A DNA stretch of 32,640 nt from a virus. Lineage: Duplodnaviria; Heunggongvirae; Uroviricota; Caudoviricetes. Under the pieces are notes generated by a model. The model saw only the letters and a program-made list of their open reading frames with translations. It searched no databases and was not told the DNA's origin. Each line of letters opens with the position of its first letter. Position 1 is the stretch's first letter. Location: positions 1 to 32,640 of IMG/VR virus record IMGVR_UViG_2541047942_000003; one strand, 5' to 3'. A program made the position numbers and the translations under genes. Shown here piece by piece: positions 5,096-32,165 of the stretch.

Positions 5096-5151
5096 GGTTT
5101 TCTCACTTCTGAATCGGGGTTAACCGGTCAGCCAGGCTGACCGGATGAAAA

Positions 5152-5670
5152 TCACAGGCCGATATTGCGGCGGTGTTGCTCCAGCCGGTCGACGCCGTTC
5201 ACCTTCTCAATCATGTTGATGGTGTCGATTTCGACCAGCTCCTTACCGTCCATCGTCAGCCGGAAATAGGTGCAGACCACGGAGATTTTCGACTCGGTGT
5301 CTTCTCCTTGTTTACCCTCGCCGGTGTCGATTTCTTTCTGACGGCCACGCATGACCACCTCGACGGCCACCGTTTCGCCGGTATCGTCGCGCTGGTAAGA
5401 ACCGGCAAAACGAATCGGCACAGCATCCACACCGGTTGCGGCGTAAAGCTCCCAGATAACCGAATCCGGGAAGCCCCCGAGCGACCACTCCATTGACAGC
5501 GCATCGTCATCAAGGCCGAGGTCTACCGGTGCGCTGCCGTTCATTCCCGCACCGCGATAGTTTTCGAGCTTACGGGTCAGTTTTGGCAGCGTGATGGACT
5601 TTGCAACGCCCTGATAGCTGTAGCCGTTCAGAAAGACGTTCATTAACTTGAGTTTGCGCGGCATTGCCAT
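5152..5670 (-). CDS. FII: Major tail tube protein gpFII
   Basis: 172-aa translation matches P2 FII; synteny. Confidence 0.9.
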   Translation of the reverse strand: MAMPRKLKLMNVFLNGYSYQGVAKSITLPKLTRKLENYRGAGMNGSAPVDLGLDDDALSMEWSLGGFPDSVIWELYAATGVDAVPIRFAGSYQRDDTGETVAVEVVMRGRQKEIDTGEGKQGEDTESKISVVCTYFRLTMDGKELVEIDTINMIEKVNGVDRLEQHRRNIGL

Positions 5671-5682
5671 CGGTCAGGCTCC

Positions 5683-6873
5683 TTAATTGCTGTTAACCGA
5701 AGTGACCAGATTTGCCAGGTATTTATCGGTAATACGCTGGCGCAGGGTCAGGTTTTCGAGAGGAGGCACCGGTGTATAGTCGTAGTCGATATACAGTTTT
5801 CCGGCCTTGAGGGTTTCCGCATCGTTGGATTCTTCGCTGAACCAGCAGGTCGCATCCACGATATAGCCGTTTGTTTTCAGCTCACGGAATTTGGCATTGA
5901 TGCCGTCAACGATGTCGCGAATCAGCGTTGCGGTGATGGGCTTGTCCACCGCCCACATGTGCGCCTCAGCCATCGTGTCGGCCAGCACCTGCGCGGTGCG
6001 GGTGTAGTTTTCAAAGAGGAACAGCGGGTCATCAGAGCAGGTACGGTTACCCCAGAATCGGAAACCGTCGCGGCGAATCAGCGTAGTGACACCTGACTCG
6101 TTAAGCAGGTCAGCATCGGTGCCGGACTCCTGCAAATCCCAGAATACAGATGCGCTGATGCCGGTAACACCGTTTACCCCGACGTTGGACAGCGTTTTAT
6201 GCCAGCCCTGCTCCTGGTCGATTTTAGCGCGCAGACCCAGTGCACGGGCGGTGGCATACGCGGTGGCGGTGGTACTGGTGACCGTATCCCATGCGAGGAA
6301 ATCCGGCCAGATGACCATCAGCTCACGCTGGCTGAAATTCTGACGGTAGGCTTTCACCTCGGAAATGGTTTTACAGCCCCATGCGCTGATATACCCGAAA
6401 GCGCGCAACTTCTGACAGACTGATGCCAGTGCAACAGCCACCTCTTTGGTATCCAGTCCCGGTACGCCGAGAATACGCGGTTTAACGCCGGTAACCGACT
6501 CAGCGCCCATCAGGGCTTTCAGTCCGGTGTACTGACCGTTTTCGTCGGTGGTGCCGATGATATTGGAAACGGTCTGCGCGAGTTTCGTTTCCTCGTCGTC
6601 GCCGGTGCCGTCTTCCACACGCACAACAACGGTGACCGGTTTTGACTGGTCGGCGATGGCCTGCAACGATGCCGCCAGCGTGCCTTTTTTACCGGCCTTT
6701 GCAATTACACTCTGCACATTGGTAATCAGCACCGGTTTATTGAGGGGGAAGGTTTCCGCATCCGCATCGCTGGCCGTGCAGACCATGCCGACAATGGCAG
6801 TGGATACGGTGGAAATGACACGTGTGCCGTCGTTAATCTCCAGCACCTGCACGCCGTGATGATAGTCACTCAT
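5683..6873 (-). CDS. FI: Contractile tail sheath protein gpFI
   Basis: 396-aa translation matches P2 FI; synteny. Confidence 0.9.
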   Translation of the reverse strand: MSDYHHGVQVLEINDGTRVISTVSTAIVGMVCTASDADAETFPLNKPVLITNVQSVIAKAGKKGTLAASLQAIADQSKPVTVVVRVEDGTGDDEETKLAQTVSNIIGTTDENGQYTGLKALMGAESVTGVKPRILGVPGLDTKEVAVALASVCQKLRAFGYISAWGCKTISEVKAYRQNFSQRELMVIWPDFLAWDTVTSTTATAYATARALGLRAKIDQEQGWHKTLSNVGVNGVTGISASVFWDLQESGTDADLLNESGVTTLIRRDGFRFWGNRTCSDDPLFLFENYTRTAQVLADTMAEAHMWAVDKPITATLIRDIVDGINAKFRELKTNGYIVDATCWFSEESNDAETLKAGKLYIDYDYTPVPPLENLTLRQRITDKYLANLVTSVNSN

Positions 6874-6970
6874 CCGTTTAACTCCGTGGTTAATGGGTGA
6901 GTGGTATTTTCAGTTGTGCAGGGCATGAGATGCTATTTGACCTGGCTGGTCAGGGGATGAAACAACAGAT

Positions 6971-6995
6971 AAAAAAGGCGGGCAATCAGCCCGCC
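6971..6995 (-). terminator. Rho-independent terminator at the end of the V-W-J-I-H-G operon
   Basis: Stem GGCGGGC / GCCCGCC with a 5-nt loop, followed on the minus strand by a T6 tract (A6 on plus at 6971-6976). Confidence 0.55.
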
Positions 6996-7203
6996 TGTAT
7001 TTATTGCGGTATTTCCGACCATTCAGGATTTGCAGGATCCACACGACCAGAAAGACAGCTACTGATTAATCAGGCCAATAAATACATGAACAGTAAGCAA
7101 TAGCCCGGCAGGTCTGAGGTACTGGCGCAATATAATTTGTGGCTGGATTACCTGTACGCACCGGAGCGGTCCGATACTTCCGGTGCGTCAGATATTGAAT
7201 GGC

Positions 7204-15319: not shown

Positions 15320-16063
15320 TTAACTGGCTTTCTTTTTCGGGCGTCCACGTTTTGCCGGTGTCACGCTCCGGGTCTTACGCGGGGCGCGGGTGGCCGCTTT
15401 GGGCTGCGGCTCCGGCTTCGGTTTCAGCTCCCGCTCCAGTCGTTCAATCTCTTTTTTGACACCTGCCTGACAGTCGAGCTGTGTCGCACGTTGCAGGTGA
15501 GCCAGCGCACCGGCGGCATCACCACCATCACGCAGAAGCAGACCGGTGATTTTGTGCAGCTTTGCGCGCACTTCATCAGGCATGTCAGCCGTGGCGGTCA
15601 GTTCAAGGGTCTCCGTCAGCAGGCGGGTATCCACAGACTCACCGGCAGCGTGGGCGCGCATGGCCGCGAGCGCCACCTCCTCGGTGAACATGTATGGCGG
15701 GGTGCGGCGGTGTTTACCCGGCATGGTCAGACCGTACTTCAGGGCATAACGGGCAATCTCCAGCGCACCGCCAATATCGCCGGTATCCAGACGCCACAGC
15801 ATGACCGTCATCAGAATGTCATCCTGTGCACCTTTGCCCTGCTCCAGCACGCCGTTCACCCACGGCAACCAGAACGGCAGCAGTTCGCGTTTTTTCGCGG
15901 CCTTCAGCTCTTTTGAATAAATCGCTTTCAGTGTGCGCTGGTCTGCGGCCAGCTTGACCAGCATCTGCTCATAGACAGTTGCATGTCGCAGCGGGGCGGC
16001 TTCCCGCTGCGCGGTCATCGCTGCCGAGACCCGCATCATGTGGCGCTGTGCGGGACTCGTCAT
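15320..16063 (-). CDS. M: Terminase endonuclease (small) subunit gpM
   Basis: 247-aa translation MTSPAQRHMMRVSAAMTAQREAAPL... matches P2 gpM. Confidence 0.9.
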   Translation of the reverse strand: MTSPAQRHMMRVSAAMTAQREAAPLRHATVYEQMLVKLAADQRTLKAIYSKELKAAKKRELLPFWLPWVNGVLEQGKGAQDDILMTVMLWRLDTGDIGGALEIARYALKYGLTMPGKHRRTPPYMFTEEVALAAMRAHAAGESVDTRLLTETLELTATADMPDEVRAKLHKITGLLLRDGGDAAGALAHLQRATQLDCQAGVKKEIERLERELKPKPEPQPKAATRAPRKTRSVTPAKRGRPKKKAS

Positions 16064-16066
16064 CGG

Positions 16067-17140
16067 TTACGCTCCCGGCTCTGCGGTCGCTTTAGCCGGT
16101 GTGGAGAAATCACCGACCTTAATTTTTTCCACCAGACAACCGGCGGCGTAGTCCTCCACCACGTAATCAATGTTCATTGACTCGTAGTTCTCCACGCGAT
16201 CGAGTTTCGGGTTTTCCTCAATCACGCGGCGATGGCTGTCATCCATGTAGTAGATGGACAGGTTTTCCAGCTTCGTGATGAGCATCGCATCAGCCGGGAA
16301 GTACGGGACGCGTACCGCTGGCAGGTTGCCGATGCGTTTCTGGCTGATGATGACGTCAGCGGCCAGCATTTCGCTGTTGTCCTGCTCCTTGTTGACGATG
16401 GGAAAATACTTGTCCGCCAGTAGCTGACGTCCCACAATCACCACAAGGTCAGGGTCTTCCTGATACCACGGCTCAATCAGGTTGTTGGTCGCATCCATCA
16501 CCAGTGCATCAAGGCTGGCATAATCACCGCCCTTACCCACGCGGATGACCTCAGAGGTGGTGTGCCCTTCCTCGTCAGTGACCTTGCTCATCACGCGCGC
16601 CGGAGCTTCATTGCGGTATTTCTGCAGCCAGCCGACCGCCACATCCTGCAGCATCGGGTTACTGCTGCGGTCAGAGGTTTCGGCACGCTTCACGCCGTTA
16701 AAACCGGCCATGATTAAATCAAGGGACTGGCGTTTGATAATGGCGTTACGGACACGGAGCTGGAAATCCTGATAACGCGCCCACAGGTCCAGCGTTTTGT
16801 AGCGGATATAAAAATCGAAGTTAATCTGGTCGCATTCGTACTTGTTTGACGCCAGCTTCGAGAAGTCCTTCGGCTGACGCTCGGTGCCACCGGCGGTGTC
16901 GGTGGTGCTGGCGATGGAGCCGGTGACACCAATACCAATTTTTTCCCCTTTCATTTCGCTGACCGGCACAATGTTGATGCGGGTCAGAAAGTCAGAGGAC
17001 TCCTGCATGGTGTTCATCAGGGTCTGGGTGACCGACGGTTCAACGGTGAATTTTTTCGACACATCACCGGCGTCGATGCCGTTCAATTCGGCAACACGGG
17101 ACAGGTAAGCATTAAATTTAAAGCGGGTTTCCTGGCGCAT
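16067..17140 (-). CDS. N: Major capsid protein gpN
   Basis: 357-aa translation matches P2 gpN. Confidence 0.92.
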   Translation of the reverse strand: MRQETRFKFNAYLSRVAELNGIDAGDVSKKFTVEPSVTQTLMNTMQESSDFLTRINIVPVSEMKGEKIGIGVTGSIASTTDTAGGTERQPKDFSKLASNKYECDQINFDFYIRYKTLDLWARYQDFQLRVRNAIIKRQSLDLIMAGFNGVKRAETSDRSSNPMLQDVAVGWLQKYRNEAPARVMSKVTDEEGHTTSEVIRVGKGGDYASLDALVMDATNNLIEPWYQEDPDLVVIVGRQLLADKYFPIVNKEQDNSEMLAADVIISQKRIGNLPAVRVPYFPADAMLITKLENLSIYYMDDSHRRVIEENPKLDRVENYESMNIDYVVEDYAAGCLVEKIKVGDFSTPAKATAEPGA

Positions 17141-17199: not shown

Positions 17200-18054
17200 T
17201 CAGCAGTTCGTCATCAGGGCGTCACCGCCACCGCCGGTGGCCTTGCTGCGGCGCTGCTGGGTCAGACTTTCGGTGTGGTCGAGGCTGTTTTTCAGGCGGG
17301 TGAATGCCTGGCTGGTTTCATCCGCCCTGTCAGTCACCTCCTGCTTAAGTGCGGAAAAGGCGGTTTCCATCTCAGCGAGGCGCTGCTCAGTGGCGCTCAG
17401 TTTTTCCTGCACATGTTCAGCAACAGCGGTCACCGCTTCATGCACGTCATTCAGACGGGCATCATCGCTGGCCTGTTTGCGGCCAAAAATGGACTTCACC
17501 TTTTCGGTCAGGGCGGTGAACACGGTTTCAGGCAGGTCTTCAAATTCCAGCTCAACGGGCGTTGCCACTGAAATCAGATTTTCAGGGCTTAATTTGAAGC
17601 GGTTCAGGGGATTGTGTTTTGCCGTGCGGCAGAATTCCAGGTATTCCGTGCCAAGGCTTGCCGGGTCATCGGTGACGGCCAGCCCCACCAGATAACATTT
17701 GCCGGTATTGGCAAAGTTCGGCTGAATTTCCATTGAGGTATAGACCTTCTGCGCGGCCTTGTTCATCGCGATAAGGTCATCGGTCGGGGTGATTTTCGCA
17801 AACAGCGCCCATTTGCCTTTCAGCGCCGAATCGTCATCAATCTTTTCAGCCTTCAGTTCGGCCACATCGCCATAACGTTTAAAAATGCCGTCAGGCAGGA
17901 TGCCGCGCAGATGTTCCAGGTTAATGCGGCAACCATAGACTCGCGGGTCAAAGGTTTCGGCCATTTCCTGAATATCCTGCGCACTGATGACACGCCCGTC
18001 ACAGGTGTCACCCTCAACGCCGATACGAAAGAATTTTGAGACTTTTTTTGCCAT
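17200..18054 (-). CDS. O: Capsid scaffolding protein gpO, 284 aa
   Basis: Translation from MAKKVSKFFRIGVEGDTCDGR... matches P2 gpO; start at the ATG at 18052-18054 rather than the track start at 18120. Confidence 0.88.
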   Translation of the reverse strand: MAKKVSKFFRIGVEGDTCDGRVISAQDIQEMAETFDPRVYGCRINLEHLRGILPDGIFKRYGDVAELKAEKIDDDSALKGKWALFAKITPTDDLIAMNKAAQKVYTSMEIQPNFANTGKCYLVGLAVTDDPASLGTEYLEFCRTAKHNPLNRFKLSPENLISVATPVELEFEDLPETVFTALTEKVKSIFGRKQASDDARLNDVHEAVTAVAEHVQEKLSATEQRLAEMETAFSALKQEVTDRADETSQAFTRLKNSLDHTESLTQQRRSKATGGGGDALMTNC

Positions 18055-18227
18055 TGTCAGGAGTCCTGAATAGTGATTAGAGGAGTCACATGTCGGCATC
18101 AGTTTCCCGACGATGCGCATCCTCCGCCATCAGTCCCGGATGGCTTATCACTGACACAACAGCACCTTAGCGAATCGCGGGGCGCGACTCAGTAGCCTTG
18201 CCGTGTATTCATCACGGCGAGGTATTC
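18055..18227. promoter_or_regulatory. Divergent late promoter region between O and P; contains a 6-bp inverted repeat (GCCGTG...CACGGC) in the P leader
   Basis: Intergenic position between divergently transcribed O and P, as in P2. I could not locate a canonical Ogr TGT-N12-ACA dyad by eye. Confidence 0.35.
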
Positions 18228-20000
18228 ATGACCATCACCACAGACACCACTCTTTTACACGACCCGCGTCGTCAGGCGGCGCTGCTGTACTGGCAGGGGT
18301 TTTCCGTGCCGCAGATTGCCGCCATGTTGCAGATGAAACGCCCGACGGTGCAGAGCTGGAAACAGCGCGACGGCTGGGACAGCGTTGCCCCCATCAGCCG
18401 TGTCGAAATGAGTCTGGAAGCGCGACTGACCCAGCTCATCATCAAACCGCAGAAAACCGGCGGTGACTTCAAGGAAATTGACCTGCTGGGACGCCAGATT
18501 GAACGACTGGCACGGGTCAACCGCTACAATCAGACCGGCAACGAGGCAGACCTTAATCCGAACATCGCTAACCGCAACAAAGGCGGGCGGCGCAAACCGA
18601 AAAAGAATTTTTTCAGCGACGAGGCTATCGAAAAGCTGGAGCAGATTTTCTTTGAGCAGTCTTTCGACTATCAGTTGCACTGGTATCGCGCCGGGCTTGA
18701 GCACCGCATCCGCGATATCCTGAAATCCCGCCAGATTGGCGCGACGTTTTATTTTTCCCGCGAGGCGCTGCTGCGCGCCCTGAAAACCGGCCATAACCAG
18801 ATTTTTCTGTCGGCCAGTAAAACGCAGGCGTATGTGTTCCGCGAATACATCATCGCCTTTGCCCGGCTGGTTGACGTTGACCTGACCGGTGACCCGATTG
18901 TCCTGGGCAATAACGGCGCAAAACTGATTTTTCTCGGCACCAACTCCAACACCGCACAGAGCCATAACGGCGACCTGTACGTCGACGAGATTTTCTGGAT
19001 CCCGAATTTTCAGGTACTGCGTAAGGTGGCATCAGGTATGGCCTCACAGAGTCACCTGCGCTCGACCTATTTCTCCACCCCGTCCACGCTGGCGCACGAC
19101 GCCTACCCGTTCTGGTCGGGTGAACTGTTCAACCGGGGACGCGCCAGCGCCGCCGAACGCGTGGAAATCGACGTCAGTCATAACGCCCTTGCCGGTGGGC
19201 TTCTCTGTGCGGACGGCCAGTGGCGGCAGATTGTCACCATTGAGGACGCCCTGAAAGGTGGCTGCACGCTGTTCGACATTGAGCAGCTCAAACGCGAAAA
19301 CAGCGCCGACGATTTTAAAAACCTGTTCATGTGTGAATTTGTTGACGACAAGGCGTCGGTGTTCCCGTTCGAGGAGCTGCAACGCTGCATGGTCGACACG
19401 CTGGAAGAATGGGAAGACTATGCGCCGTTTGCCGCGAATCCGTTCGGCTCCCGCCCGGTATGGATTGGTTACGACCCGTCACACCGTGGCGACAGTGCCG
19501 GATGCGTGGTGCTGGCACCGCCGGTGGTGGCCGGTGGCAAATTCAGAATACTTGAGCGTCACCAGTGGAAAGGCATGGACTTTGCCACTCAGGCGGAATC
19601 CATCCGCAAACTCACCGAAAAATACAACGTCGAATACATCGGTATTGATGCCACCGGCCTCGGTGTCGGCGTGTTCCAGCTCGTGCGCTCGTTCTATCCC
19701 GCCGCGCGCGATATCCGCTACACACCGGAAATGAAAACCGCAATGGTGCTCAAGGCAAAAGACGTTATCCGCCGTGGCTGTCTGGAATATGACGTCAGCG
19801 CCACCGACATCACCAGCTCGTTTATGGCTATCCGCAAGACCATGACCAGCAGCGGACGCAGCGCCACCTATGAGGCCAGCCGCAGCGAGGAAGCCAGCCA
19901 CGCCGACCTCGCCTGGGCGACCATGCACGCCCTGTTAAATGAGCCACTCACCGCCGGTATCAGCACCCCGCTGACATCCACCATTCTGGAGTTTTACTGA
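18228..20000 (+). CDS. P: Terminase ATPase (large) subunit gpP, 590 aa
   Basis: Translation from MTITTDTTLLHDPRRQAALLYWQGFSVPQIAAM... matches P2 gpP; start at the ATG at 18228. Confidence 0.9.
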   Translation: MTITTDTTLLHDPRRQAALLYWQGFSVPQIAAMLQMKRPTVQSWKQRDGWDSVAPISRVEMSLEARLTQLIIKPQKTGGDFKEIDLLGRQIERLARVNRYNQTGNEADLNPNIANRNKGGRRKPKKNFFSDEAIEKLEQIFFEQSFDYQLHWYRAGLEHRIRDILKSRQIGATFYFSREALLRALKTGHNQIFLSASKTQAYVFREYIIAFARLVDVDLTGDPIVLGNNGAKLIFLGTNSNTAQSHNGDLYVDEIFWIPNFQVLRKVASGMASQSHLRSTYFSTPSTLAHDAYPFWSGELFNRGRASAAERVEIDVSHNALAGGLLCADGQWRQIVTIEDALKGGCTLFDIEQLKRENSADDFKNLFMCEFVDDKASVFPFEELQRCMVDTLEEWEDYAPFAANPFGSRPVWIGYDPSHRGDSAGCVVLAPPVVAGGKFRILERHQWKGMDFATQAESIRKLTEKYNVEYIGIDATGLGVGVFQLVRSFYPAARDIRYTPEMKTAMVLKAKDVIRRGCLEYDVSATDITSSFMAIRKTMTSSGRSATYEASRSEEASHADLAWATMHALLNEPLTAGISTPLTSTILEFY

Positions 20001-21019
20001 TGAGCAAGAAAAAAGGGAAAACACCGCAACCTGCGGCAAAAAAAATGACCGCCAGCGCCCCGAAAATGGAGGCATTCACCTTTGGTGAGCCGGTGCCGGT
20101 ACTCGACCGCCGTGACATTCTGGATTACGTCGAGTGCATCAGTAACGGCAGATGGTATGAGCCGCCGGTCAGCTTTACCGGTCTGGCGAAAAGCCTGCGT
20201 GCTGCCGTGCATCACAGCTCGCCGATTTACGTCAAACGCAATATTCTGGCCTCGACATTTATCCCGCATCCGTGGCTTTCCCAGCAGGATTTCAGCCGCT
20301 TTGTGCTGGATTTTCTGGTGTTCGGTAATGCGTTTCTGGAAAAGCGTTACAGCACCACCGGTAAGGTCATCAGACTGGAAACCTCACCGGCAAAATATAC
20401 CCGCCGTGGCGTGGAGGAGGATGTTTACTGGTGGGTGCCGTCCTTCAACGAGCCGACAGCCTTCACGCCCGGCTCCGTGTTTCACCTGCTGGAGCCTGAT
20501 ATTAATCAGGAGCTGTACGGCCTGCCGGAATATCTCAGCGCCCTTAACTCTGCATGGCTGAATGAGTCGGCCACGCTGTTCCGCCGCAAGTATTACGAAA
20601 ACGGCGCACATGCCGGATACATCATGTACGTCACCGATGCCGTGCAGGATCGCAACGATATCGAAATGCTTCGCGAAAACATGGTGAAGTCGAAAGGCCG
20701 CAACAACTTTAAAAATCTATTTCTCTATGCCCCACAGGGGAAAGCCGACGGCATTAAAATTATCCCGCTCAGTGAAGTGGCAACGAAGGACGATTTTTTT
20801 AATATCAAAAAAGTCAGCGCCGCAGATCTGCTGGACGCACACCGCATCCCCTTTCAGTTGATGGGCGGCAAGCCGGAGAACGTCGGGTCACTGGGGGATA
20901 TTGAGAAAGTGGCAAAAGTATTTGTCCGTAATGAACTCATTCCATTACAGGAGAGAATAAAGTCAATAAATGAATGGTTAGATATGGAAGTCATAAAATT
21001 CCATGATTATAACTTATAA
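20000..21019 (+). CDS. Q: Portal protein gpQ; the last 25 or so codons are encoded by AT-rich DNA
   Basis: 339-aa translation matches P2 gpQ; DNA composition changes sharply near 20940. Confidence 0.9.
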   Translation: MSKKKGKTPQPAAKKMTASAPKMEAFTFGEPVPVLDRRDILDYVECISNGRWYEPPVSFTGLAKSLRAAVHHSSPIYVKRNILASTFIPHPWLSQQDFSRFVLDFLVFGNAFLEKRYSTTGKVIRLETSPAKYTRRGVEEDVYWWVPSFNEPTAFTPGSVFHLLEPDINQELYGLPEYLSALNSAWLNESATLFRRKYYENGAHAGYIMYVTDAVQDRNDIEMLRENMVKSKGRNNFKNLFLYAPQGKADGIKIIPLSEVATKDDFFNIKKVSAADLLDAHRIPFQLMGGKPENVGSLGDIEKVAKVFVRNELIPLQERIKSINEWLDMEVIKFHDYNL

Positions 21020-21031
21020 GTAAATATATAA

Positions 21032-21057
21032 AGTGGGCGGAATGCAATCCCGCCTAC
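21032..21057. terminator. Stem-loop between the convergent Q and two-TM genes (putative bidirectional terminator)
   Basis: AGTGGGCGG ... CCGCCTACT, a roughly 9-bp stem with one G-U pair and a loop containing AATGCAA. Confidence 0.4.
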
Positions 21058-21061
21058 TTAA

Positions 21062-21769
21062 CTATATATACTTCCTTTTTATTCTACTTAATTCTATCAC
21101 CGATGAGGAATGACAAAATGACAAATTAATAGTATCGATATAATCCAAAATTTGACTCTCAACCTCGATAAAAATATTCTTGGGTCCATTACTAATCGAT
21201 ATACCGATTTCATCCAAAACAGCCATCATTTTTCTCTGATGAGTTTTATATTTATAGTCTTTATTTTCCTCTGTAATATGTGCATTAGCTTCCTCAATAA
21301 CACATTTGATTCTAGATATTATTTCTAGATAATCTCTCGAAACAGATATATCACCGCCCTGTGCTTCAGGAAACATAACCCTATACCATCTAAAAAAATT
21401 AACTTTCTCTGGATAGATGCTACTTCTTTTAGTTAACTCAGCACTTGCAAATTCTCTAAACATCGTCAGATGACTAGTATAATTACTATTGTTATTATTT
21501 TTAACTCCAGCGTTATATGTCATCAAAGCAATCATAACACCAAAAACGGTAACAAAAGTTGTTATAAGCCATCCAAATGCCTGAAAATACATCACTATAC
21601 CAGATGTTTTTTCCGCAAAAAATTTCAAGCACTGGCTATCAAAGCATATATCTCGTTCATATAGCCTTTCATTCTGAATAGTTTCCAAAAGAGAAATTAG
21701 CGAAAAAATCAAAAAAAGAACTGACGACACACCGACAATACATTTAAGAAGTCTAATATTTGCATTCAT
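21062..21769 (-). CDS. Two-TM membrane protein, 235 aa; candidate effector of the reverse transcriptase module
   Basis: Two predicted N-terminal hydrophobic helices (LLKCIVGVSSVLFLIFSLISLL and IVMYFQAFGWLITTFVTVFGVMIALM) and a soluble C-terminal domain; the start ATG overlaps the RT stop (ATGA); AT-rich. Confidence 0.6.
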   Translation of the reverse strand: MNANIRLLKCIVGVSSVLFLIFSLISLLETIQNERLYERDICFDSQCLKFFAEKTSGIVMYFQAFGWLITTFVTVFGVMIALMTYNAGVKNNNNSNYTSHLTMFREFASAELTKRSSIYPEKVNFFRWYRVMFPEAQGGDISVSRDYLEIISRIKCVIEEANAHITEENKDYKYKTHQRKMMAVLDEIGISISNGPKNIFIEVESQILDYIDTINLSFCHSSSVIELSRIKRKYI

Positions 21770-22956
21770 AATGGTTTTAAAGATGCCAATCTAGATTTAA
21801 AACACTCCAGTTTTTCTTTAAATGATTCAGATCGAGTAAGGATAATCATCTTATATCTCGTCAAATCATACTTTCTTTTATACCAATGTTTATTTTGATT
21901 ACCTTTCGAATACGACAACTCTAAACTTTTTATAGCTGCATCAATCACAGCAACATCTCTTTTAGATGGCATCGGTTTTATTGCCTGTAACTGTTTCTTG
22001 AATGATTCATATTTTTCATGCCCAACACGACCAAGCTTATTAACTCTCCCCATACATCTATTGAATTCTTTTCTGTATGCAACACTTGTTTTTGTATTAT
22101 TTTTTGCCGCCAGCAATTTCAAATTATGTATAGATGCCCTGATTCTTTTGACTTCATCAGATGGTAGTCGAGGTGAGTCATAGTCAACTCTTAAACCATG
22201 TACTTTTATAGGTTCAGATGAACAGTGAAATATTTTAGTTTTGTGCTTATTTATCGGCAAGTCATGCTCAGAAAGCATCCTCTCTATATGGCTTTGCATT
22301 TGAGAAAAATCATAATTACTTATTTTAGATGACACAGTAATATCATCTACCAAACGCGTATAAATAAGTCCTTTTCTCTGCGCACGCCTTACCACATCCC
22401 CTTCAACAGCGAATAAACACAAAGTTGCTATATAGCTTGATGTTAAGGCCCCCTGTACGACAAAATCATTCTTAGTACATATATCCACCAAGTATTCAAG
22501 AGCCTCATCCTTAATATGCAATATATCCTCAAACACGCTCCTAACCAGATCTCTATGAATATTATCGAAAAAATTACTTATATCCACCTTGAGAACTGTT
22601 TTTGCTCCACAATGAGCCTTTGCGCATGAAACATAGTCACGTTTGACGTTAGAATTTAAAACATCATTTTTACTAGGGACTGAACCAAACAAAAATGAAG
22701 GAAAAACCACCAATTCCTTAAAGATACGTTTATTAATTCTACTCTGTAATAATCTCATTTTAGGATGCAGGGAGTAGACAATCCGTTTGCTTCCGTCAAT
22801 TTTGGGAATTTCTTTTAGAGTATATTTCTCATCTAATGGTAGTTCTGCAATAGCTTTAAGCTCTTCAACAGAAATCGATAAAGCCTTTGACAGCTTTTCA
22901 AGTGTTGTGATAGGAGCATTGGATTTGCTGTATGGTTTAAATTTATCCATAAACAT
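21766..22956 (-). CDS. Retron-type reverse transcriptase, about 396 aa
   Basis: Motif order typical of retron RTs: LSKALSISVEEL, VLKVDISNFFDNI, QGALTSSYIATL, GLIYTRLVDDITVS (YADD position reads LVDD), KTKIF...VHG. The track start at 23040 is a TTG and is probably false; I place the start at the ATG ending at 22956 (MFMDKF), which is uncertain by a few tens of nt. Confidence 0.75.
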   Translation of the reverse strand: MFMDKFKPYSKSNAPITTLEKLSKALSISVEELKAIAELPLDEKYTLKEIPKIDGSKRIVYSLHPKMRLLQSRINKRIFKELVVFPSFLFGSVPSKNDVLNSNVKRDYVSCAKAHCGAKTVLKVDISNFFDNIHRDLVRSVFEDILHIKDEALEYLVDICTKNDFVVQGALTSSYIATLCLFAVEGDVVRRAQRKGLIYTRLVDDITVSSKISNYDFSQMQSHIERMLSEHDLPINKHKTKIFHCSSEPIKVHGLRVDYDSPRLPSDEVKRIRASIHNLKLLAAKNNTKTSVAYRKEFNRCMGRVNKLGRVGHEKYESFKKQLQAIKPMPSKRDVAVIDAAIKSLELSYSKGNQNKHWYKRKYDLTRYKMIILTRSESFKEKLECFKSRLASLKPL

Positions 22957-22973
22957 ACCATTCAAATTCAAAG

Positions 22974-23280
22974 TTACGTACGGTCTTCCCATACTCAAGG
23001 GTGGAACAGCAGAGATGCTTACATCAACAATTGTCAGCAACAGCCTCTGCTATCTTTCGACCGTACGTAATGTCGTCGGCTACAGCACCATCGTAGTTGA
23101 CGACGGTGGGGCCTCGCTGATAGGTCCATAGTGGACGCTTTTTTGTAAAAGCAAAAACTGACAATTTAGTATTGTTGACTGCCGCATACCAAGCGAATCG
23201 CTGGTGCGCTAAGAATAATGCAACAAAAAAATAAGAATTTCAATCGAGTAACTGCAAGCCAGCGACATCGTTTGGCGCGC
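22974..23280 (-). ncRNA. Structured noncoding region between cos and the RT start; candidate retron msr-msd or other RT-associated ncRNA; boundaries unresolved
   Basis: Perfect 12-bp inverted repeat TTACGTACGGTC / GACCGTACGTAA (23059-23070 and 22974-22985) enclosing a nested AGCAGAG / CTCTGCT repeat; a further hairpin at 23072-23104 and a palindrome GCTTTTTTGTAAAAGC at 23137-23152. Confidence 0.3.
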
Positions 23281-23281
23281 A

Positions 23282-23300
23282 GTGCTTTCCCCGCCTCGCC
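23282..23300 (-). other. cos: P2-type cos (19-nt cohesive-end sequence GGCGAGGCGGGGAAAGCAC on the minus strand)
   Basis: Reverse complement of 23282-23300 reads GGCGAGGCGGGGAAAGCAC followed by TGCGCGC, matching my recollection of the left end of the P2 genome. Confidence 0.65.
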
Positions 23301-23395
23301 CGCCCGCTTCATGGGGCGGTTTTGATGCAACCTCGTATTAAAGGGGACACCATAGCCCATCAAACCTCAGACTTCGCCCCTAGCTAACGTTTATG

Positions 23396-23422
23396 AATGC
23401 AATGTAATGCAACTTAATGCAA
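23396..23422 (+). promoter_or_regulatory. Three AATGCAA heptamers spaced exactly 10 bp apart, upstream of the helicase-nuclease gene; putative protein-binding sites
   Basis: AATGCAA at 23396, 23406 and 23416; followed by an AT-rich -10-like GATAAT (23434-23439) and an AAGAGG ribosome-binding site 7 nt before the ATG at 23484. Confidence 0.4.
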
Positions 23423-23483
23423 GTTATGGTAATGATAATTCTGCGTTAACAATTAAACTAATGTACCTGTAAGAGGATAAAAA

Positions 23484-25967
23484 ATGTCTGGTTTTTTCCT
23501 TGATTTAACCAAGCTTTCGCCCAGTGTAAATAGCGACACAGCGATTCCACCGCGAGATATATTTACAGCTCTACCGAGCAAAGACACCAAATTTCAATAC
23601 CCTCGAGATGTGCAATCAGAGGTCTGGGAAAAATGGTATGAAGCAAGGAGAAGCCCAACCAATGTAATAAAAATGAATACCGGAAGCGGTAAAACTTCAG
23701 TTGGGTTAATCATTCTTAAAAGCTGTATAAATGAAGGAGAAGGTCCCGCTGTATATGTTGTTCCTGACAACTATCTAGTTGAGCAAGTGGTTTTGGAGGC
23801 TAATCAACTTGGTATACCTGTAACTCAAGATGAGAGGTCCCCCAAATTTATTGCAGGTAAAGAAATTTTAGTTACAAATATATTCAAAGTGGTTAATGGA
23901 CGTTCTGCATTTGGCGTTGGAGATGATGGACAAAAAATACCAATAGGTTCTATAATAATTGACGATGCTCACGCTTGCCTTTCTTCAATTGAAGAACAAT
24001 TCTCCATTAGCATTCAAAAAAATAACCCTGCCTATGATAAATTATTCAGAATTTTTGAAAATTCACTAATGACACAAGCTGGTGCAAAAACACTAGAGAT
24101 AAAATCCGGCGATAGAAATGCTTATGTGAGAGTTCCATTTTGGAAATGGCAAGAAAGCATAAATGATATAATGACAATCTTGTTAGAAAATAAAGACCAT
24201 GATGACTTGAGTTTCAAATGGCCATTAATAAAAGACAATCTAATATTATCGAAATGCGTTGTAAGTGCTTCCAAAATAGAGATATCACCTCATTGCATAC
24301 CAATCCAAATGATCCCAAGCCTATCAAACGCAAGAAGAAAAATATTCATGACAGCTACTCTTGTCGATGAATCCATTCTAGCGAGCCACTTCGGAATAAC
24401 GGATGAATCACTCTCTAATCCGATAACACCAAAAACAATTGGTGATATTGGTGATAGAATGATACTAATGCCTCAGGTTATAAACCCTAGTCTTTCTGAT
24501 GTAGATATCAAAGCTATGTGCAAGGAGATATCCTCCAAACATAATGTTGTTGTAATTGTACCATCCGATTACAGAACTAGATTTTGGCAAGATGTTGCAG
24601 ACAGAATATTAGATAAAAATACAATTTATCAAGGTGTACAAGAATTAAGGACACAACATGTTGGCTTAGTAGTCCTAGTTAATAGATATGATGGTATTGA
24701 TTTACCAAATACCGCATGTCGTCTATTAGTAATAGATGGACTTCCTGACGTTCGTAGACTAATAGATAAAGTCTCACAAAGCTTATTGCTTGGAAGCGAA
24801 AAAACCAAAGATGAAATTATCCAGAAAATTGAACAAGGAATGGGGCGAGGAGTGAGATCAAGCGACGACTTCTGCGGAGTGATCTTACTTGGCAAAGCAT
24901 TAAATGGCGCTGTTTTCCTTGGCTCCTCCTTAGAAAGGTTTTCTCCAGCAACGAAAGCACAAATTCAACTTTCACAGCAATTGGTATCGATACTGCCGGA
25001 TACAACTATTGATTCAATCAAAGGTGCTCTTGATTATTGTCTGTTACGCAATTCTGACTGGGTCTCAAAAAGCAAAGGTATATTGACTGGCTTAACATTG
25101 GAAAATAAGCAGATTGACCAGCATACTATAAACAAAAGATTGGCATATGACTTAGCATCACGAAATATGTTTCAACAAGCCGCTTTAACTCTAAAAAATG
25201 ATAGTAGTACAGCTGACAAAGTTTATAAGGGTTATCTAAAAGAACATGCTGCGGAATATGTAAACTTATATGACAAATCTGAAGCTCAGATATTGCTTCA
25301 GTCTGCATCAAACGATAACTATCGGGTATTAAAACCACTAATCGGCGTAACATATAATAGACTTAATGGTGCGGCACTTGAACAGGCCAGGGAATGTAGC
25401 TCCTATCTCAGAAGTAATTTTGAATCGGCGAATCAAGTCGTTGTGCATACTAATTCAATAATAGAAAACCTTATTTTCTCCGAGGGCACATCGAATCCCT
25501 TCGAAGATGCTATCGAAAAAGTTGCATATTTGGTCGGTTTTCGTAGCCAACGGCCAGAAAATGATACAGGTAAAGGACCTGACAATTTATGGGCAATGGG
25601 AGAAAACAATTATCTAGTAATTGAATGCAAAAATGGAGCAACCGCAGAAAGAATAAGTAAGCATGACTGCAATCAGTTAAATGGGTCGGGTGCATGGTTC
25701 AGAAACATGTATGATCAAACTGCTACCGCCACACCTATAATGATACATCACTCTAACATGCCTGAATATGCCGCAACACTAAACGAAGGGTCTCGAATAA
25801 TGACCATAAATGATCTTGAACGTTTTAAAGCATCTATCCTCAGTTTTATCACGGCCATTTGTACAAGTGATAAACGACACGATGAGATATTTATAAGAGA
25901 ACAATTGATCACATGTAAATTACGTGCATCAGACATAGTTGAGACCTATACGCGAAACCCTCGTTAA
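23484..25967 (+). CDS. Helicase-nuclease fusion, 827 aa: Rad3/DinG-like SF2 helicase with a C-terminal PD-(D/E)xK-like motif; candidate single-gene defence protein
   Basis: Walker A NTGSGKT (aa 65-71), motif II IIIDDAHA (aa 157-164), motif III FMTATL, motif VI QGMGRGVRSSDDFCGVILLG, and C-terminal E...GPD(aa 700)...VIECK(aa 714-716); strong RBS; AT-rich; occupies the P2 old/tin position. Confidence 0.7.
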   Translation: MSGFFLDLTKLSPSVNSDTAIPPRDIFTALPSKDTKFQYPRDVQSEVWEKWYEARRSPTNVIKMNTGSGKTSVGLIILKSCINEGEGPAVYVVPDNYLVEQVVLEANQLGIPVTQDERSPKFIAGKEILVTNIFKVVNGRSAFGVGDDGQKIPIGSIIIDDAHACLSSIEEQFSISIQKNNPAYDKLFRIFENSLMTQAGAKTLEIKSGDRNAYVRVPFWKWQESINDIMTILLENKDHDDLSFKWPLIKDNLILSKCVVSASKIEISPHCIPIQMIPSLSNARRKIFMTATLVDESILASHFGITDESLSNPITPKTIGDIGDRMILMPQVINPSLSDVDIKAMCKEISSKHNVVVIVPSDYRTRFWQDVADRILDKNTIYQGVQELRTQHVGLVVLVNRYDGIDLPNTACRLLVIDGLPDVRRLIDKVSQSLLLGSEKTKDEIIQKIEQGMGRGVRSSDDFCGVILLGKALNGAVFLGSSLERFSPATKAQIQLSQQLVSILPDTTIDSIKGALDYCLLRNSDWVSKSKGILTGLTLENKQIDQHTINKRLAYDLASRNMFQQAALTLKNDSSTADKVYKGYLKEHAAEYVNLYDKSEAQILLQSASNDNYRVLKPLIGVTYNRLNGAALEQARECSSYLRSNFESANQVVVHTNSIIENLIFSEGTSNPFEDAIEKVAYLVGFRSQRPENDTGKGPDNLWAMGENNYLVIECKNGATAERISKHDCNQLNGSGAWFRNMYDQTATATPIMIHHSNMPEYAATLNEGSRIMTINDLERFKASILSFITAICTSDKRHDEIFIREQLITCKLRASDIVETYTRNPR

Positions 25968-26206: not shown

Positions 26207-28486
26207 TTACTCTGAATAACCAGAAAACCCACTCCACTCATCTACACTAGGATATGAAAATTGCTTTTCATTGTAATTGACGATCGCACCGCGTACTAAC
26301 GCCTCAAGCTCCCATCGCTGCGGCCTGATACCGTTTTGAGCAAGGTCAACGCGGATACGGGTGATTTGCATTCGTTCCGACCTGGTCAGTCTGGCCGATG
26401 GTGCAATTTCATGTGGTTTTAACGGGCTTCCGTTTCTTTGCTGACGACTTGGCGTTCTCCGACCGTGTTTTAATGCACCCCTGAGCGCCCTCACGACCTC
26501 CGGGTCATTCCATTCGATAACACCGTCATCAACCAGATTTAGCACTGCTGCGGCGTGCTCAGAAGGTGTGGGAGCCGGTAACGAAGTATCACCACCGGTG
26601 AGCTTTCCACAGTTATTGACAGGACTCCGAGGCGCGGCGATGCCGCTTTTTAAAGTCAAAGGCTCAAAGACCGGCACTTTCGGAACAATGCGCCAGTCCG
26701 TCGTTCTGGTGATATGAATATGACGCGCGCCGAGATGCGGCGCGTAAATGCCGACCACTCTCTCGACTTCTTCCTCATACTCGTTAACGTCATCCGACGG
26801 GCTACGGGCGACCCTGACAGTCTGACAATCGCGCGGGACATTTGCCCCACCCTGCGCGCTGATATACAACGCAAAATCACCACTGTCTGCGGCGGCGCGT
26901 GCAGCCTCGACGCGCTCGTCAAACTCATCAGCAATGCTGACGCCGCGAGGCAATTTGCGTAGTTCACGGTAAGCCCCCATTGTCGGCAGACCAACCGTTT
27001 TAAATTGCGGGATGCGCCACGTTGACGCCCATGCGGTAACAGCCGCGGCAGTGTCTTTCAGCGGTCTGCCGGTATCATTATCGAGCTGACCATCCAGTGC
27101 ATATCCGTCGATATTTTTTGAGATGTATTTCGCGATATACCCCGCAGCACCGCCCCGGTTAAGGTGTTTCGCCTGAAAACGGTTTCGCGCGGCTCCTCTT
27201 TCGTCGCCATCCTCTTTGAGCGCGTAGCGACGCATGATTTCAATAATCTGGTTACGCTGGCGTGGATTACAAAAAAGCATCATATGCCAGTGCGGCGTTC
27301 CGTCGTGGTGTGGCTCGACGACTCGCAAACCGTAGGCCTGTAAATCATTATCCTTGAATGCCGTGCGCATCAGGCTCCAGATGCGGCAGAGATAACGCTG
27401 AGCATCCTTTGGATTAAATGCCTCATCATTCCAGCCGTGATTTAGCTGGACGGTTTTACTTTCGCCTTTTCCGACCTGACGTGTCGGGTGATACTTTGAC
27501 GGCGCGGTCAGCGTGATAAACATCCCCACATCACCCTCTGCGGCGGCGTAACGCTCAATACCGGCAATGGTGTTCATCAGCTCCATCCGGCGAATTTCAG
27601 GATTAGAAATACTGCCCATCACCTTACTGATAAGGTCGATGCGTTCGCCGGTTTCCCTGTTTTCAAGGTCACACGATTTAAGAAATTCCAGATTTGCCTG
27701 GCGGCGCGCACGCACATCACGAATGGCATGTTTACTGGCATAAGGAGAACGGTCTTTATTGACCTCCCCGACAGCAATCAGTAACGCCTCATGCCAGCGC
27801 ATACGCTGGCCTTTAAGCTGATGAGTCCACCACTCATCGTTAAACAGGCGGGCAATAGCAGAATATGCCTGCCTCGTGGTCATCTGTCCTTTACGGTATT
27901 TTTTCCAGTAGAGAGGGGAAATATTGAAAGCACGTGCAGCGCCAGCAACATGACCATAGAGGTGAGCCTGCGCCTCATCCGTAAACAGCGATTCTTTCTC
28001 GCCATGCGCATCCACCCAGGCATCGCAGAGTTCCTCATACATCATGAAAAGCTGTGATGAGATACGGGCGGCAAACTTTTTCAGCTCCTTGTCATTCATT
28101 CCCGGCAGGCGCGCATAGTGGTCACGCTCTGCCAGAAACAGCAACGACGCGTCGGTGTTCATTTCATGGCGCTGATTCACACGCTCAATGCGCGGCCATA
28201 AACGACGCTGAAAAGTGGATGTGAGGAAATAAAACCCGTGCACCGGGCTTTTATTGCGCCGGATGTAGTCATAGCGTGAAGTAAACAGCGAGCGCAAAAA
28301 GTAAGGCAGGCGGTTAATCGTGGATAAAACACCTTGCACCTGACGCATCTCGTCACGTGTAAGGGGTCTTTCGCGCCCGACAGCCTCGCGTGGCGCGTTC
28401 CATGCATAAGCACCGGTAAACGCCTTACCGGTGCCTGCAGCAAATGCTGACGGAGGGACAAAACGCCCGGAGGCTTTAACGGCCAT
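26207..28486 (-). CDS. A: Replication initiation protein gpA (rolling-circle nickase), 759 aa
   Basis: Translation from MAVKASGRFVPPSAFAAGTGKAF... matches P2 gpA; start placed at the ATG ending at 28486 rather than the track start at 28528. Confidence 0.9.
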   Translation of the reverse strand: MAVKASGRFVPPSAFAAGTGKAFTGAYAWNAPREAVGRERPLTRDEMRQVQGVLSTINRLPYFLRSLFTSRYDYIRRNKSPVHGFYFLTSTFQRRLWPRIERVNQRHEMNTDASLLFLAERDHYARLPGMNDKELKKFAARISSQLFMMYEELCDAWVDAHGEKESLFTDEAQAHLYGHVAGAARAFNISPLYWKKYRKGQMTTRQAYSAIARLFNDEWWTHQLKGQRMRWHEALLIAVGEVNKDRSPYASKHAIRDVRARRQANLEFLKSCDLENRETGERIDLISKVMGSISNPEIRRMELMNTIAGIERYAAAEGDVGMFITLTAPSKYHPTRQVGKGESKTVQLNHGWNDEAFNPKDAQRYLCRIWSLMRTAFKDNDLQAYGLRVVEPHHDGTPHWHMMLFCNPRQRNQIIEIMRRYALKEDGDERGAARNRFQAKHLNRGGAAGYIAKYISKNIDGYALDGQLDNDTGRPLKDTAAAVTAWASTWRIPQFKTVGLPTMGAYRELRKLPRGVSIADEFDERVEAARAAADSGDFALYISAQGGANVPRDCQTVRVARSPSDDVNEYEEEVERVVGIYAPHLGARHIHITRTTDWRIVPKVPVFEPLTLKSGIAAPRSPVNNCGKLTGGDTSLPAPTPSEHAAAVLNLVDDGVIEWNDPEVVRALRGALKHGRRTPSRQQRNGSPLKPHEIAPSARLTRSERMQITRIRVDLAQNGIRPQRWELEALVRGAIVNYNEKQFSYPSVDEWSGFSGYSE

Positions 28487-28751
28487 ATGAGCCAAAAGCC
28501 TCTGAACAACGCTTGCTGAGTTGCTCAACCTGCGCGTTTAAATCAGCAAAAGACTTTGCGCTTCCGGTCAGAATATCGTGATGCATCAGGCCGGAAACGA
28601 GCTGGCTTAATTTCGGGTAATAACCAACCACCGCCAGCCATTCCTGACCGGCGTTTTTACCGCTTTCCGCTCTCTTTTTCTCGTGGAGAATAAACTGGAA
28701 GCTGTCACTGGTAACGACATAACGTTCGCCAATTTCAATACGAATACTCAT
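28476..28751 (-). CDS. Small early-operon protein, 91 aa, at the P2 orf83 position
   Basis: Lies upstream of A in the cox-B-A operon; assigned by synteny only. Confidence 0.6.
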   Translation of the reverse strand: MSIRIEIGERYVVTSDSFQFILHEKKRAESGKNAGQEWLAVVGYYPKLSQLVSGLMHHDILTGSAKSFADLNAQVEQLSKRCSEAFGSYGR

Positions 28752-31044: not shown

Positions 31045-32058
31045 ATGGCAATCAAAAAACTCGATGATGGTCGATATGAAGTGGACATCCGCCCTACTGG
31101 ACGTAATGGAAAACGCATCCGTAGGAAGTTTGATAAGAAAAGCGAAGCTGTCGCTTTCGAGAAATACACGTTGTACAACCACCACAATAAAGAATGGCTA
31201 TCAAAACCAACAGACAAGCGACGTCTGTCGGAGCTGACACAGATCTGGTGGGATTTAAAGGGTAAACACGAAGAGCATGGGAAATCTAATCTTGGAAAAA
31301 TTGAAATCTTCACAAAAATAACGAATGACCCATGCGCATTTCAAATTACGAAATCGCTTATCAGCCAGTACTGCGCCACCCGAAGAAGTCAGGGTATTAA
31401 ACCTTCGAGTATCAATCGTGATTTAACATGTATTAGCGGCATGTTTACAGCCCTGATTGAAGCGGAGTTATTCTTTGGTGAGCACCCTATCAGAGGGACA
31501 AAAAGGCTTAAGGAGGAAAAACCAGACACAGGCTATCTCACGCAGGAAGAAATTGCCTTACTGCTTGCTGCTCTTGACGGCGACAATAAAAAGATTGCGA
31601 TTCTTTGCCTGAGTACTGGAGCACGTTGGGGAGAAGCAGCTCGTTTGAAAGCAGAAAATATCATCCATAACCGCGTCACGTTTGTTAAAACGAAAACAAA
31701 CAAACCACGCACCGTCCCGATCTCAGAGGCTGTTGCCAAAATGATCGCGGATAACAAACGAGGTTTTTTATTCCCTGATGCTGATTACCCTCGCTTCAGA
31801 CGAACAATGAAAGCAATAAAACCGGATTTGCCAATGGGGCAAGCCACACATGCACTAAGGCACAGCTTTGCCACTCATTTCATGATTAATGGAGGAAGTA
31901 TTATCACGCTACAACGGATACTAGGTCACACGCGGATTGAGCAAACTATGGTTTACGCTCACTTTGCGCCAGAGTACCTTCAGGACGCCATTTCTCTTAA
32001 TCCGCTAAGAGGTGGTACTGAGGCCGAGAGTGTCCACACAGTGTCCACAGTAGAGTAA
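31045..32058 (+). CDS. int: Tyrosine integrase
   Basis: 337-aa translation matches P2 Int, with HALRHSFATH and a C-terminal catalytic Tyr region (MVYAHF); adjacent to attL. Confidence 0.92.
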   Translation: MAIKKLDDGRYEVDIRPTGRNGKRIRRKFDKKSEAVAFEKYTLYNHHNKEWLSKPTDKRRLSELTQIWWDLKGKHEEHGKSNLGKIEIFTKITNDPCAFQITKSLISQYCATRRSQGIKPSSINRDLTCISGMFTALIEAELFFGEHPIRGTKRLKEEKPDTGYLTQEEIALLLAALDGDNKKIAILCLSTGARWGEAARLKAENIIHNRVTFVKTKTNKPRTVPISEAVAKMIADNKRGFLFPDADYPRFRRTMKAIKPDLPMGQATHALRHSFATHFMINGGSIITLQRILGHTRIEQTMVYAHFAPEYLQDAISLNPLRGGTEAESVHTVSTVE

Positions 32059-32137: not shown

Positions 32138-32165
32138 AATCTCCCTTACACGGGCTTATTTTTTA
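32138..32165. repeat. attL core, 28-bp direct repeat identical to 145-172
   Basis: Exact repeat AATCTCCCTTACACGGGCTTATTTTTTA. Confidence 0.8.

Follow-up and report, generated by a model that had tools for sequence, protein, structure and literature searches.

The stretch of viral DNA analysed here (the window; 32,640 nt, IMG/VR record IMGVR_UViG_2541047942_000003, assigned to the Caudoviricetes) carries a P2-type cohesive-end sequence that does not lie next to the portal gene, but in the middle of an island of cargo genes, with a reverse transcriptase (RT) module between cos and the portal gene. This raises the questions of whether such a layout is a departure from the P2 plan, and of whether the signals used for DNA packaging have to share their sequence with the leader structures of the RT module, as had been proposed in a first-pass annotation of the window.

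The prophage and its cos site

The prophage is about 32.0 kb long and is bounded by two exact copies of a 28-bp direct repeat, the left one lying in the 3' end of cyaR (CyaR is found at 83-168; Rfam RF00112, 100.7 bits). None of the P2 packaging and head genes is missing, and the structural, lysis, replication and integration genes examined are all full length. The following features serve as landmarks:

145-172, plus strand: attL copy of the 28-bp direct repeat, in the cyaR 3' end (exact repeat)
15320-16063, minus strand: terminase small subunit gpM (Pfam Phage_term_smal, E 9e-48)
16067-17140, minus strand: capsid gene N
17200-18120, minus strand: scaffold gene O
18198-20000, plus strand: terminase large subunit gpP (Pfam Terminase_6N, Terminase_6C and Terminase_5)
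20000-21019, plus strand: portal gene Q (Pfam Phage_portal)
26207-28528, minus strand: replication gene A, which closes the hotspot on its far side (Pfam Phage_GPA, E 1e-123)
31045-32058: integrase
32138-32165: attR copy of the 28-bp direct repeat (exact repeat)

The 19-nt sequence GGCGAGGCGGGGAAAGCAC occurs once in the window, on the minus strand at 23282-23300, with no mismatches; dinucleotide shuffles of the window gave a mean of 0.01 matches with up to three mismatches permitted. It is identical at 19 of 19 positions to the annotated cosL/cosR of P2 (NC_001895), and the cos sequence given at first pass is thus confirmed letter for letter against the ends of the P2 record. The setting is also of the P2 type, in that the site lies between Q and A, with the same orientation to both genes as in P2, and that the gpM and gpP terminase genes are present in the same prophage. 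Around the cohesive end, four elements can be distinguished:

23275-23329, no strand assigned: 55-bp cos core, in which the 19-nt overhang is flanked by 7 bp towards Q and by 29 bp towards gpA
23282-23300, minus strand: 19-nt P2 cohesive end (cosN); GGCGAGGCGGGGAAAGCAC, read 5' on the minus strand, corresponds to the left end of virion DNA
23300-23329, plus strand: G+C hairpin (CCGCCC/GGGCGG), T run, then GATGCA, within the cos core
23395-23423, plus strand: three AATGCAA repeats with 10-bp spacing (ATGCA at 23397, 23407 and 23417)

The limits of the core were defined by comparison. The stretch 23275-23329 is the only one common to the window and 71 P2-like phage records, and it coincides with the near-invariant block seen over 149 distinct P2-like loci, which extends from offset -7 to offset +47, counted from the first base of the 19-mer. 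In 35 loci with unrelated Q-side cargo, each position of the core carries 1.5-2 bits. The core is kept in P2 and P4 too, and only about 2-3 of its positions differ between P2 and the window. The same segment is known as the '55-bp core' of the P2/P4/186 cos, which is attributed to Ziermann and Calendar (1990) in the passages of PMC5694545 and PMC9594776 that cite this work. Within the core, a terminator-like match was found for 23300-23319 plus TTTTGATGCA, and this hairpin and T-run stretch is kept in P2 and P4; it may act as a terminator, in recognition by the terminase, or in both.

From the Q stop at 21019 to the overhang the distance is 2262 bp, in agreement with the gap of about 2.2 kb, with an RT gene and a gene for a protein with two transmembrane segments (2TM), reported in the first-pass annotation. 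The P2 value with which this gap had been compared, a couple of hundred bp, also proved to be right: in NC_001895 the Q stop and cos are 167 bp apart, nothing but the terminator tQ lies between them, and the cargo genes old and tin are all on the gpA side. The window differs from P2 in having cargo on both sides of cos, namely a retron on the Q side and a PDC-S28 helicase on the gpA side, so that cos does lie between two cargo modules, as had been described.

The retron between cos and the portal gene

The Q-side interval is occupied by the following retron elements, some of them candidates:

21036-21054, no strand assigned: hairpin between the convergent Q and 2TM genes; terminator-like match on the minus strand, in the place of P2 tQ
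21062-21769, minus strand: two-transmembrane retron effector (PADLOC 2TM_IV, E 9e-85)
21766-22956, minus strand: retron RT, type IV (Ec48 family; PADLOC RT_IV, Pfam RVT_1)
22970-23209, minus strand: conserved structured leader upstream of the RT gene, presumed retron ncRNA
23215-23243, minus strand: candidate sigma-70 retron promoter (TTGAAA, 17-nt spacer, CATTAT; consensus scan)

The RT gave a full-length match to the profile PDLC02947 (RT_IV, E 8e-177), in an alignment that begins at residue 36 of the long ORF. Its start is likely to be the ATG at 22956 rather than the TTG at 23040, and the RT of Escherichia phage pro147 (KR073660) is annotated as a protein of 396 aa. The effector also matches the NCBIfam equivalog retron_Ec48_2TM (retron Ec48 family effector membrane protein) with 227 bits, the cut-off being 65, and its gene overlaps the RT gene by 4 nt. 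A type IV RT, a 2TM effector overlapping the RT stop and a non-coding leader upstream are likewise the components of Retron-Eco6 (Ec48), the type IV retron presented as a guardian of RecBCD by Millman et al. (2020), according to the account of that work in PMC8632793.

The leader, about 240 nt long, is approximately 90% identical to its counterparts in two divergent retrons, L174 and L175, where the RT is only 74-76% identical; this difference indicates that the leader is under a constraint of its own. Its consensus fold consists of several hairpins with 65 pairs, two of which show compensatory changes, and the fold has a z-score of -4.3. The leader also contains an inverted repeat with perfectly matching 12-nt arms (23070-23059 / 22985-22974) and a G directly after it, a possible a1/a2 pair with its branching G, although no more than 73 nt separate the arms. 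Alternative a1/a2 pairs were considered and rejected: I5 (22960-22969 / 23235-23244), which overlaps the candidate -35 hexamer, as well as I3 and I11, are not kept in L174 or L175. No retron or msr family of Rfam was found in the whole window at the gathering threshold, nor in 22900-23500 at E<=10, where the matches were chance ones such as mir-9 and K10_TLS.

As regards the promoter, the scan returned 11 sites, as against 10.5 in shuffled sequences, and this lack of excess makes the retron promoter a candidate by virtue of its position and conservation only. The -35 hexamer and the A2 and T6 of the -10 hexamer are kept in L174 and L175, and the roughly 30 bp between the candidate promoter and cos show no conservation in the same two retrons.

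The other end of the cassette was located from the portal gene. Compared with P2 and with canonical relatives, Q is 95-100% identical as far as about 20900 and only about 50% identical past 20930, whereas the identity to the retron-bearing locus L084 stays at 93-100% past this point. The last 29 or so residues of the portal protein differ from those of P2, and Q is 5 codons shorter. Downstream, canonical relatives have GCCGCCTGCGGGCGGCTTTTTT at the place of the 21036-21054 hairpin, which has no T run on the Q strand. The break in identity near 20930, along with the match to L084, implies that the cassette carries its own last 30 or so portal codons. Judging from these alignments, the retron cassette does not begin at the Q stop but some 90 bp before it, within Q, and is not an insertion but a replacement, to use the term in the title of Dodd and Egan (1996). 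Other Q-side cargos are likewise accompanied by variant C-termini of Q.

The cargo on the gpA side

On the opposite side of cos, between the ATGCA repeats and gene A, lies the following gene:

23484-25967, plus strand: candidate defence helicase PDC-S28 (PADLOC PDC-S28)

The match to the PDC-S28 profile PDLC04986 is full length (1055 bits, residues 6-825), and the Pfam domains ResIII, DEAD and Helicase_C_2 are found within residues 40-471. The gene had previously been described as a helicase-nuclease beyond cos. Its position and the helicase domains agree with this description, but the nuclease part does not find a counterpart in Pfam, considering that the C-terminal 355 aa of the protein contain no Pfam domain at E<=1, nuclease domains included. 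The same protein is present at 99.8-100% identity in three other loci (L151, L101 and L094), in which the Q side is empty and the spacer between Q and cos is 169 bp.

Occurrence of the layout in P2-like prophages

Loci with relatives of the window's portal gene, 160 in all (80 from species-representative genomes and 80 from IMG/VR), were surveyed, and the Q stop, cos and gpA were located in each. Among the surveyed loci listed, the median distance from Q to cos is 170-178 bp. A distance greater than 500 bp was found in 29 of 74 species-representative P2-like prophages (39%) and in 7 of 79 IMG/VR relatives (9%) among the matches listed, frequencies that are rough because the loci were chosen by portal similarity, up to a limit of 80 per collection. 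The DNA accommodated in this interval is highly varied: over 153 loci, 35 distinct Q-side cargos were recognized, including many unrelated gene families. By homology only, sampled cargos matched the PADLOC systems Lamassu (LmuA/B), Avs5, Olokun (OloA/B), PD-T4-4, NsnA and an AbiL-like system, as well as the candidates PDC-S02, PDC-M03, PDC-M18 and PDC-S49. Of 5426 complete E. coli genomes, 57 contain the portal-2TM-RT-cos arrangement itself, about 97.5% identical to that of the window, and the homology ends exactly at 23329. With cargo between Q and cos in 39% and 9% of the surveyed loci of the two collections, and with 57 E. coli genomes of identical layout, the window can no longer be regarded as a departure from P2, as it had been at first pass.

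An instance that is also documented by experiment is phage pro147, which has the portal, 2TM and RT genes and cos with the same 2262-bp spacing, and is 97.6% identical to the window over 23040-23329. This phage was induced, forms plaques, and its virions were imaged by electron microscopy (PMC5285337). It differs from the window on the gpA side, where its cargo is a 556-aa protein of another family and not PDC-S28. In the pro147 record, the 2TM effector is misannotated as AlkB.

A more distant parallel is offered by retron Ec86. In the Ec86 locus of E. coli BLR(DE3), a 186-type cos, read by eye, occupies about 4998-5016 and is followed by the retron (5091-7139) and by the portal stop (7157); the retron fills the interval from cos to the portal end, as it does in the window. 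The two loci differ in other respects. Ec86 belongs to the St85/Ec86 family and has another effector, whereas the window has a type IV RT with a 2TM protein; the gene order and the orientation relative to cos are also different; and the cos of the Ec86 locus is of the 186 type, with no match to the P2 19-mer anywhere in that locus at up to three mismatches. The location of the retrons Ec86 and Ec67 in 186-related prophages was reported by Dodd and Egan (1996, Virology 219:115), as far as the accessible part of that article goes, and the interval between cosL and Q is referred to as a hotspot, with Dodd and Egan (1996) and Nakayama (1999) as sources, in the relevant passage of PMC5694545. That P2/186-like prophages can have cargo, retrons included, between cos and the portal gene has therefore been on record since 1996.

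More recently, Rousset et al. (2022; PMC9122126) surveyed 18,150 gpA-gpQ loci as a cos-adjacent defence hotspot, and the survey was repeated across RefSeq in a 2026 study (PMC13586616), according to the accessible text of the two articles. The island of the window resembles this hotspot, and that of P4-like satellites, in its location, in its closeness to cos and in its variable, defence-rich cargo. In the same portions of text, gpA-gpQ is treated as a single hotspot, whereas the present data divide it into two independently assorting bays with the 55-bp core between them, one on the Q side with a sharp boundary at offset -8, and one on the gpA side that begins only past the ATGCA array. As a layout, portal-retron-cos is a known and recurrent state of a known hotspot, and in this sense ordinary. 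In the annotation of P2-like prophages, defence cassettes are to be expected on either side of cos.

Reach of the packaging signals

In the 35 loci with mutually unrelated Q-side cargo, offset -8 marks a fall of the information content from some 2 bits to nearly 0. Towards gpA, the sequence stays conserved to about +54, is weakly so again from +68 to +83, and clearly so from +115 to +119 and from +125 to +129. The motif ATGCA is found at +43 (23325), +115, +125 and +135 from the overhang in the window, at +43, +115, +125 and +137 in P2, and at +43, +115, +125 and +138 in P4; the resemblance of the window to P2 thus includes, besides the identical overhang, the hairpin with its T run and ATGCA at +43, +115 and +125. 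To our knowledge, the satellite P4 and P2 have nothing in common but cos. Over 149 loci, the occupancy of ATGCA is 96%, 60% and 54%, with a background of 0.6%, and the intervening sequence is unrelated. The number of copies of the 10-bp repeat is three in the window and four in L151.

From this pattern of conservation we infer that the part of cos recognized by the terminase is on the right-end (gpA) side, and we propose, with much less confidence, that the ATGCA array represents binding sites for the terminase small subunit. The array could instead be a promoter or another regulatory element of the right-end cargo, but its occurrence in P4 as well speaks against such a role.

Beyond the conserved end of cos on the Q side, which is 7 bp past the overhang, the candidate retron promoter is reached after 31 bp and the leader after 65 bp. 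The expectation of the first-pass annotation, i.e. that packaging signals are forced to coexist with the RT leader, is at variance with a Q-side conservation that stops 7 bp from the overhang. Nor do packaging-type motifs appear to overlap the leader, considering that the extra conserved motifs are all on the gpA side and that the plaque-forming pro147 has the same layout. A subtler version of this idea would be that packaging signals and retron expression interact, either because recognition extends into 23210-23274 or because transcription or folding of the leader affects the use of cos. A single-sequence minimum free energy (MFE) fold, in which 23250-23285 pairs with the 5' part of the leader, would be in keeping with such an interaction, and so would the weak inverted repeats I3 and I11, which join 23257-23268 to downstream sequence, and the finding that longer cos flanks, on a side that is not specified, raise cosmid transduction (PMC9594776). 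However, the stretch 23244-23274 is conserved neither among P2-like loci nor among type IV retrons; the pairings are missing in L174 and L175, and the MFE pairing of cos-proximal sequence with the leader was rejected on this account; and a transcript with its start near 23209 would not contain the cos-proximal stretch. An interaction of this kind is improbable.

An asymmetric cos, with its recognition signals on the gpA side, would be of practical interest, as it leads to a hypothesis of a minimal cos for the design of P2/P4 cosmids and transducing particles, consisting of 7 bp to the left of the overhang and of some 145 bp to its right, a length that takes in the ATGCA array.

Two probable cargo bays joined at the cos core

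The history of the island can be read from two loci that each share one half of it. L151 is a locus with PDC-S28 in which the Q side is empty; the window is identical to it to the right of and including offset -7, over the whole ATGCA array, repeat copy number aside, and unrelated to it to the left of -8. When compared with L084, which has the retron and another gpA-side cargo, the window is near-identical on the left, as far as +47, and unrelated past that point. At the level of sequence, then, the window combines two cassettes in an exact chimera, with the 55-bp core as the joint. Retron-bearing loci have at least four different gpA-side cargos, and the window's own retron-cos-PDC-S28 junction is present in none of the 5426 complete E. 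coli genomes. The chimeric structure, together with these mixed pairings, indicates that Q-side and gpA-side cassettes are separate and assort independently, and it follows that counts of 'hotspot arrangements' mix two loci.

On these grounds it is highly probable that 23282-23300 is the functional cos of an apparently intact P2-like (Peduovirus) prophage of about 32 kb, and this estimate applies to the two-bay explanation as a whole, which can be outlined as follows. As expected from established P2 biology, the gpM/gpP terminase would cut at 23282/23300, leaving 19-nt 5' overhangs, and in virion DNA the retron would be the left-terminal cassette and the PDC-S28 helicase the right-terminal one. 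Towards Q, the recognition signal would reach only 7 bp past the overhang, and towards gpA it would comprise the rest of the core and the ATGCA array about 115-140 bp out. Such an asymmetric recognition would leave DNA free to vary between offset -8 and the 3' end of Q, and also past the ATGCA array up to gpA. These two bays would be independent cargo slots of the gpA-gpQ defence hotspot, and the 55-bp core would provide the common segment at which cassettes from different phages recombine. In the window, the Q-side bay would hold a retron of the Ec48 family equipped with a promoter, leader, RT, 2TM effector and terminator of its own, a module that presumably overwrote the last 30 or so codons of Q and the terminator tQ, while the gpA-side bay would be filled by PDC-S28.

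Cassette exchange may well proceed by recombination within or at the core. In the accessible text of Rousset et al. (PMC9122126), recombination at cos is suggested as a mechanism, and the chimera data fit this idea.

Two other origins of the layout have to be weighed against the two-bay explanation. Retrons of different kinds (Ec67, Ec86 and the Ec48 family) might be mobile agents that insert site-specifically beside the left cohesive end. Ec86 in E. coli B and the Ec48 family do occur at the same site, and Ec67 would be a third case, going by the title of Dodd and Egan (1996); moreover, L174 and L175, despite their divergent RTs, keep a cosL-like 27-mer (20 of 27 positions) at the same distance from the leader. 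Nevertheless, the same boundary at -8 is found with 35 unrelated cargos, among which Lamassu, Avs5, Olokun, PD-T4-4 and AbiL have no RT, and a boundary common to unrelated cargos must be a property of the site. In addition, the left edge of the module inside Q looks like the result of homologous replacement, and neither a target duplication nor repeats at the retron ends were seen. Site-specific insertion by retrons is for these reasons an improbable origin. The other possibility is that cos is a relic in a defective prophage, in which the 2.3-kb replacement, by giving the portal protein a new C-terminus and by removing tQ, put an end to packaging. The altered and shortened end of Q described above, and the lack of a T run on the Q strand in the hairpin that took the place of tQ, are what a damaged locus might display. 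Against this stand the full-length structural, lysis, replication and integration genes, the intact att repeats, and the fact that the same Q variant, retron and cos are found in the plaque-forming pro147 and also in 57 E. coli genomes (about 97.5% identical). A dead prophage in which the replacement abolished packaging is accordingly unlikely.

The two-bay explanation can be extended to the way in which the cassettes are acquired. It is conceivable, although we consider it doubtful, that the hotspot is composed of two mechanistically different bays hinged on the core, with the left cargo taken up or exchanged via the cleaved left cohesive end, and with the ATGCA array (3-4 copies) acting as the gpM site, the equivalent of cosB at the right end. 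Some support for capture at the left end comes from L174 and L175, which keep the cosL half-site outside a P2 context. In both loci, the far side of this half-site is not the P2 cos core, and only a fragment of Q is found nearby. A capture of this kind would also be in keeping with the constant start of the left-end bay, which in all lineages is exactly 7 bp from the nick.

Sequence elements on the gpA side of cos

The side of cos that faces gpA carries repeated ATGCA motifs whose offsets from cos (+43, +115, +125 and about +135, counted towards gpA) are fixed, being common to the window and to the right ends of P2 (L003/L002) and of the satellite P4 (L164/L165). In the window, these motifs are the following:

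23325-23329, ATGCA motif, gpA side of cos
23397-23401, ATGCA motif, gpA side of cos
23407-23411, ATGCA motif, gpA side of cos
23417-23421, ATGCA motif, gpA side of cos

The last three are spaced by 10 bp, and at the matching place L151, a relative that has PDC-S28 and an empty Q side, contains four copies versus three in the window. The array is a candidate that could be bound by the small subunit of the terminase.

The invariant cos core includes a G+C hairpin followed by TTTT (window 23300-23319), and this hairpin is kept in P2 and P4; judging from its orientation in the sequence, it would block transcription running from the Q side through cos into the cargo on the gpA side. Some 68-83 bp from cos towards gpA, many relatives (e.g. 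L033, L035, L038, L044 and P4) show a palindrome-like CCGCGCCAGC(N)CTGGCGG block, which falls at about +68 to +90 in the gap separating the core from the ATGCA array. The block is absent from the window, and among the loci with Q-side cargo it has an information content of about 1 bit per position.

Extent and relatives of the retron module

On the other side, the exchanged retron module reaches into the portal gene and includes its final ~30 codons (window 20930-21019); Q ends in ...SINEWLDMEVIKFHDYNL in the window versus ...EINGWLGQEVIRFKNYSLDTDNG in canonical relatives, and is 5 codons shorter. Distinct Q C-termini accompany other Q-side cargos too, whereas in L088 and L135 the canonical end of Q and the P2 terminator tQ are retained.

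Two IMG/VR contigs with divergent type IV retrons (L174 and L175; RT identity 74-76%) present a half-site resembling the left cohesive end:

L174 2659-2685, and the matching position in L175, cosL-like 27-mer GGTCTGGCTGGGAAAGTATTGCGCGAC, upstream of the type IV retron

This sequence is identical to the cosL 27-mer at 20 of the 27 positions, and its distance from the retron leader is exactly the distance between leader and cos in the window. Its far side is devoid of the P2 cos core in both contigs, and in L174 the portal is present only as a 70-aa C-terminal fragment, about 1 kb off. The type IV retron may have moved along with a left cohesive end.

Occurrence in E. coli and integration site

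Against 5426 complete genomes of E. coli, window 20900-23500 reached at best only about 97.5% identity in the retron module, and none of the matches extended past 23329; therefore, none of these genomes pairs the retron with PDC-S28 exactly as the window does. The window may come from a host other than a typical E. coli. The prophage, about 32.0 kb between attL and attR, is inserted in the sRNA gene CyaR (RyeE), at its 3' end; gene and attL together span window 83-172, and the att sites are a 28-bp direct repeat (AATCTCCCTTACACGGGCTTATTTTTTA; right copy at window 32138-32165).

In pro147 (KR073660), ORF30 (L001 4023-4730) is a 2TM retron effector of the Ec48 family; its GenBank label, 'alkylated DNA repair protein AlkB', looks like a misannotation.
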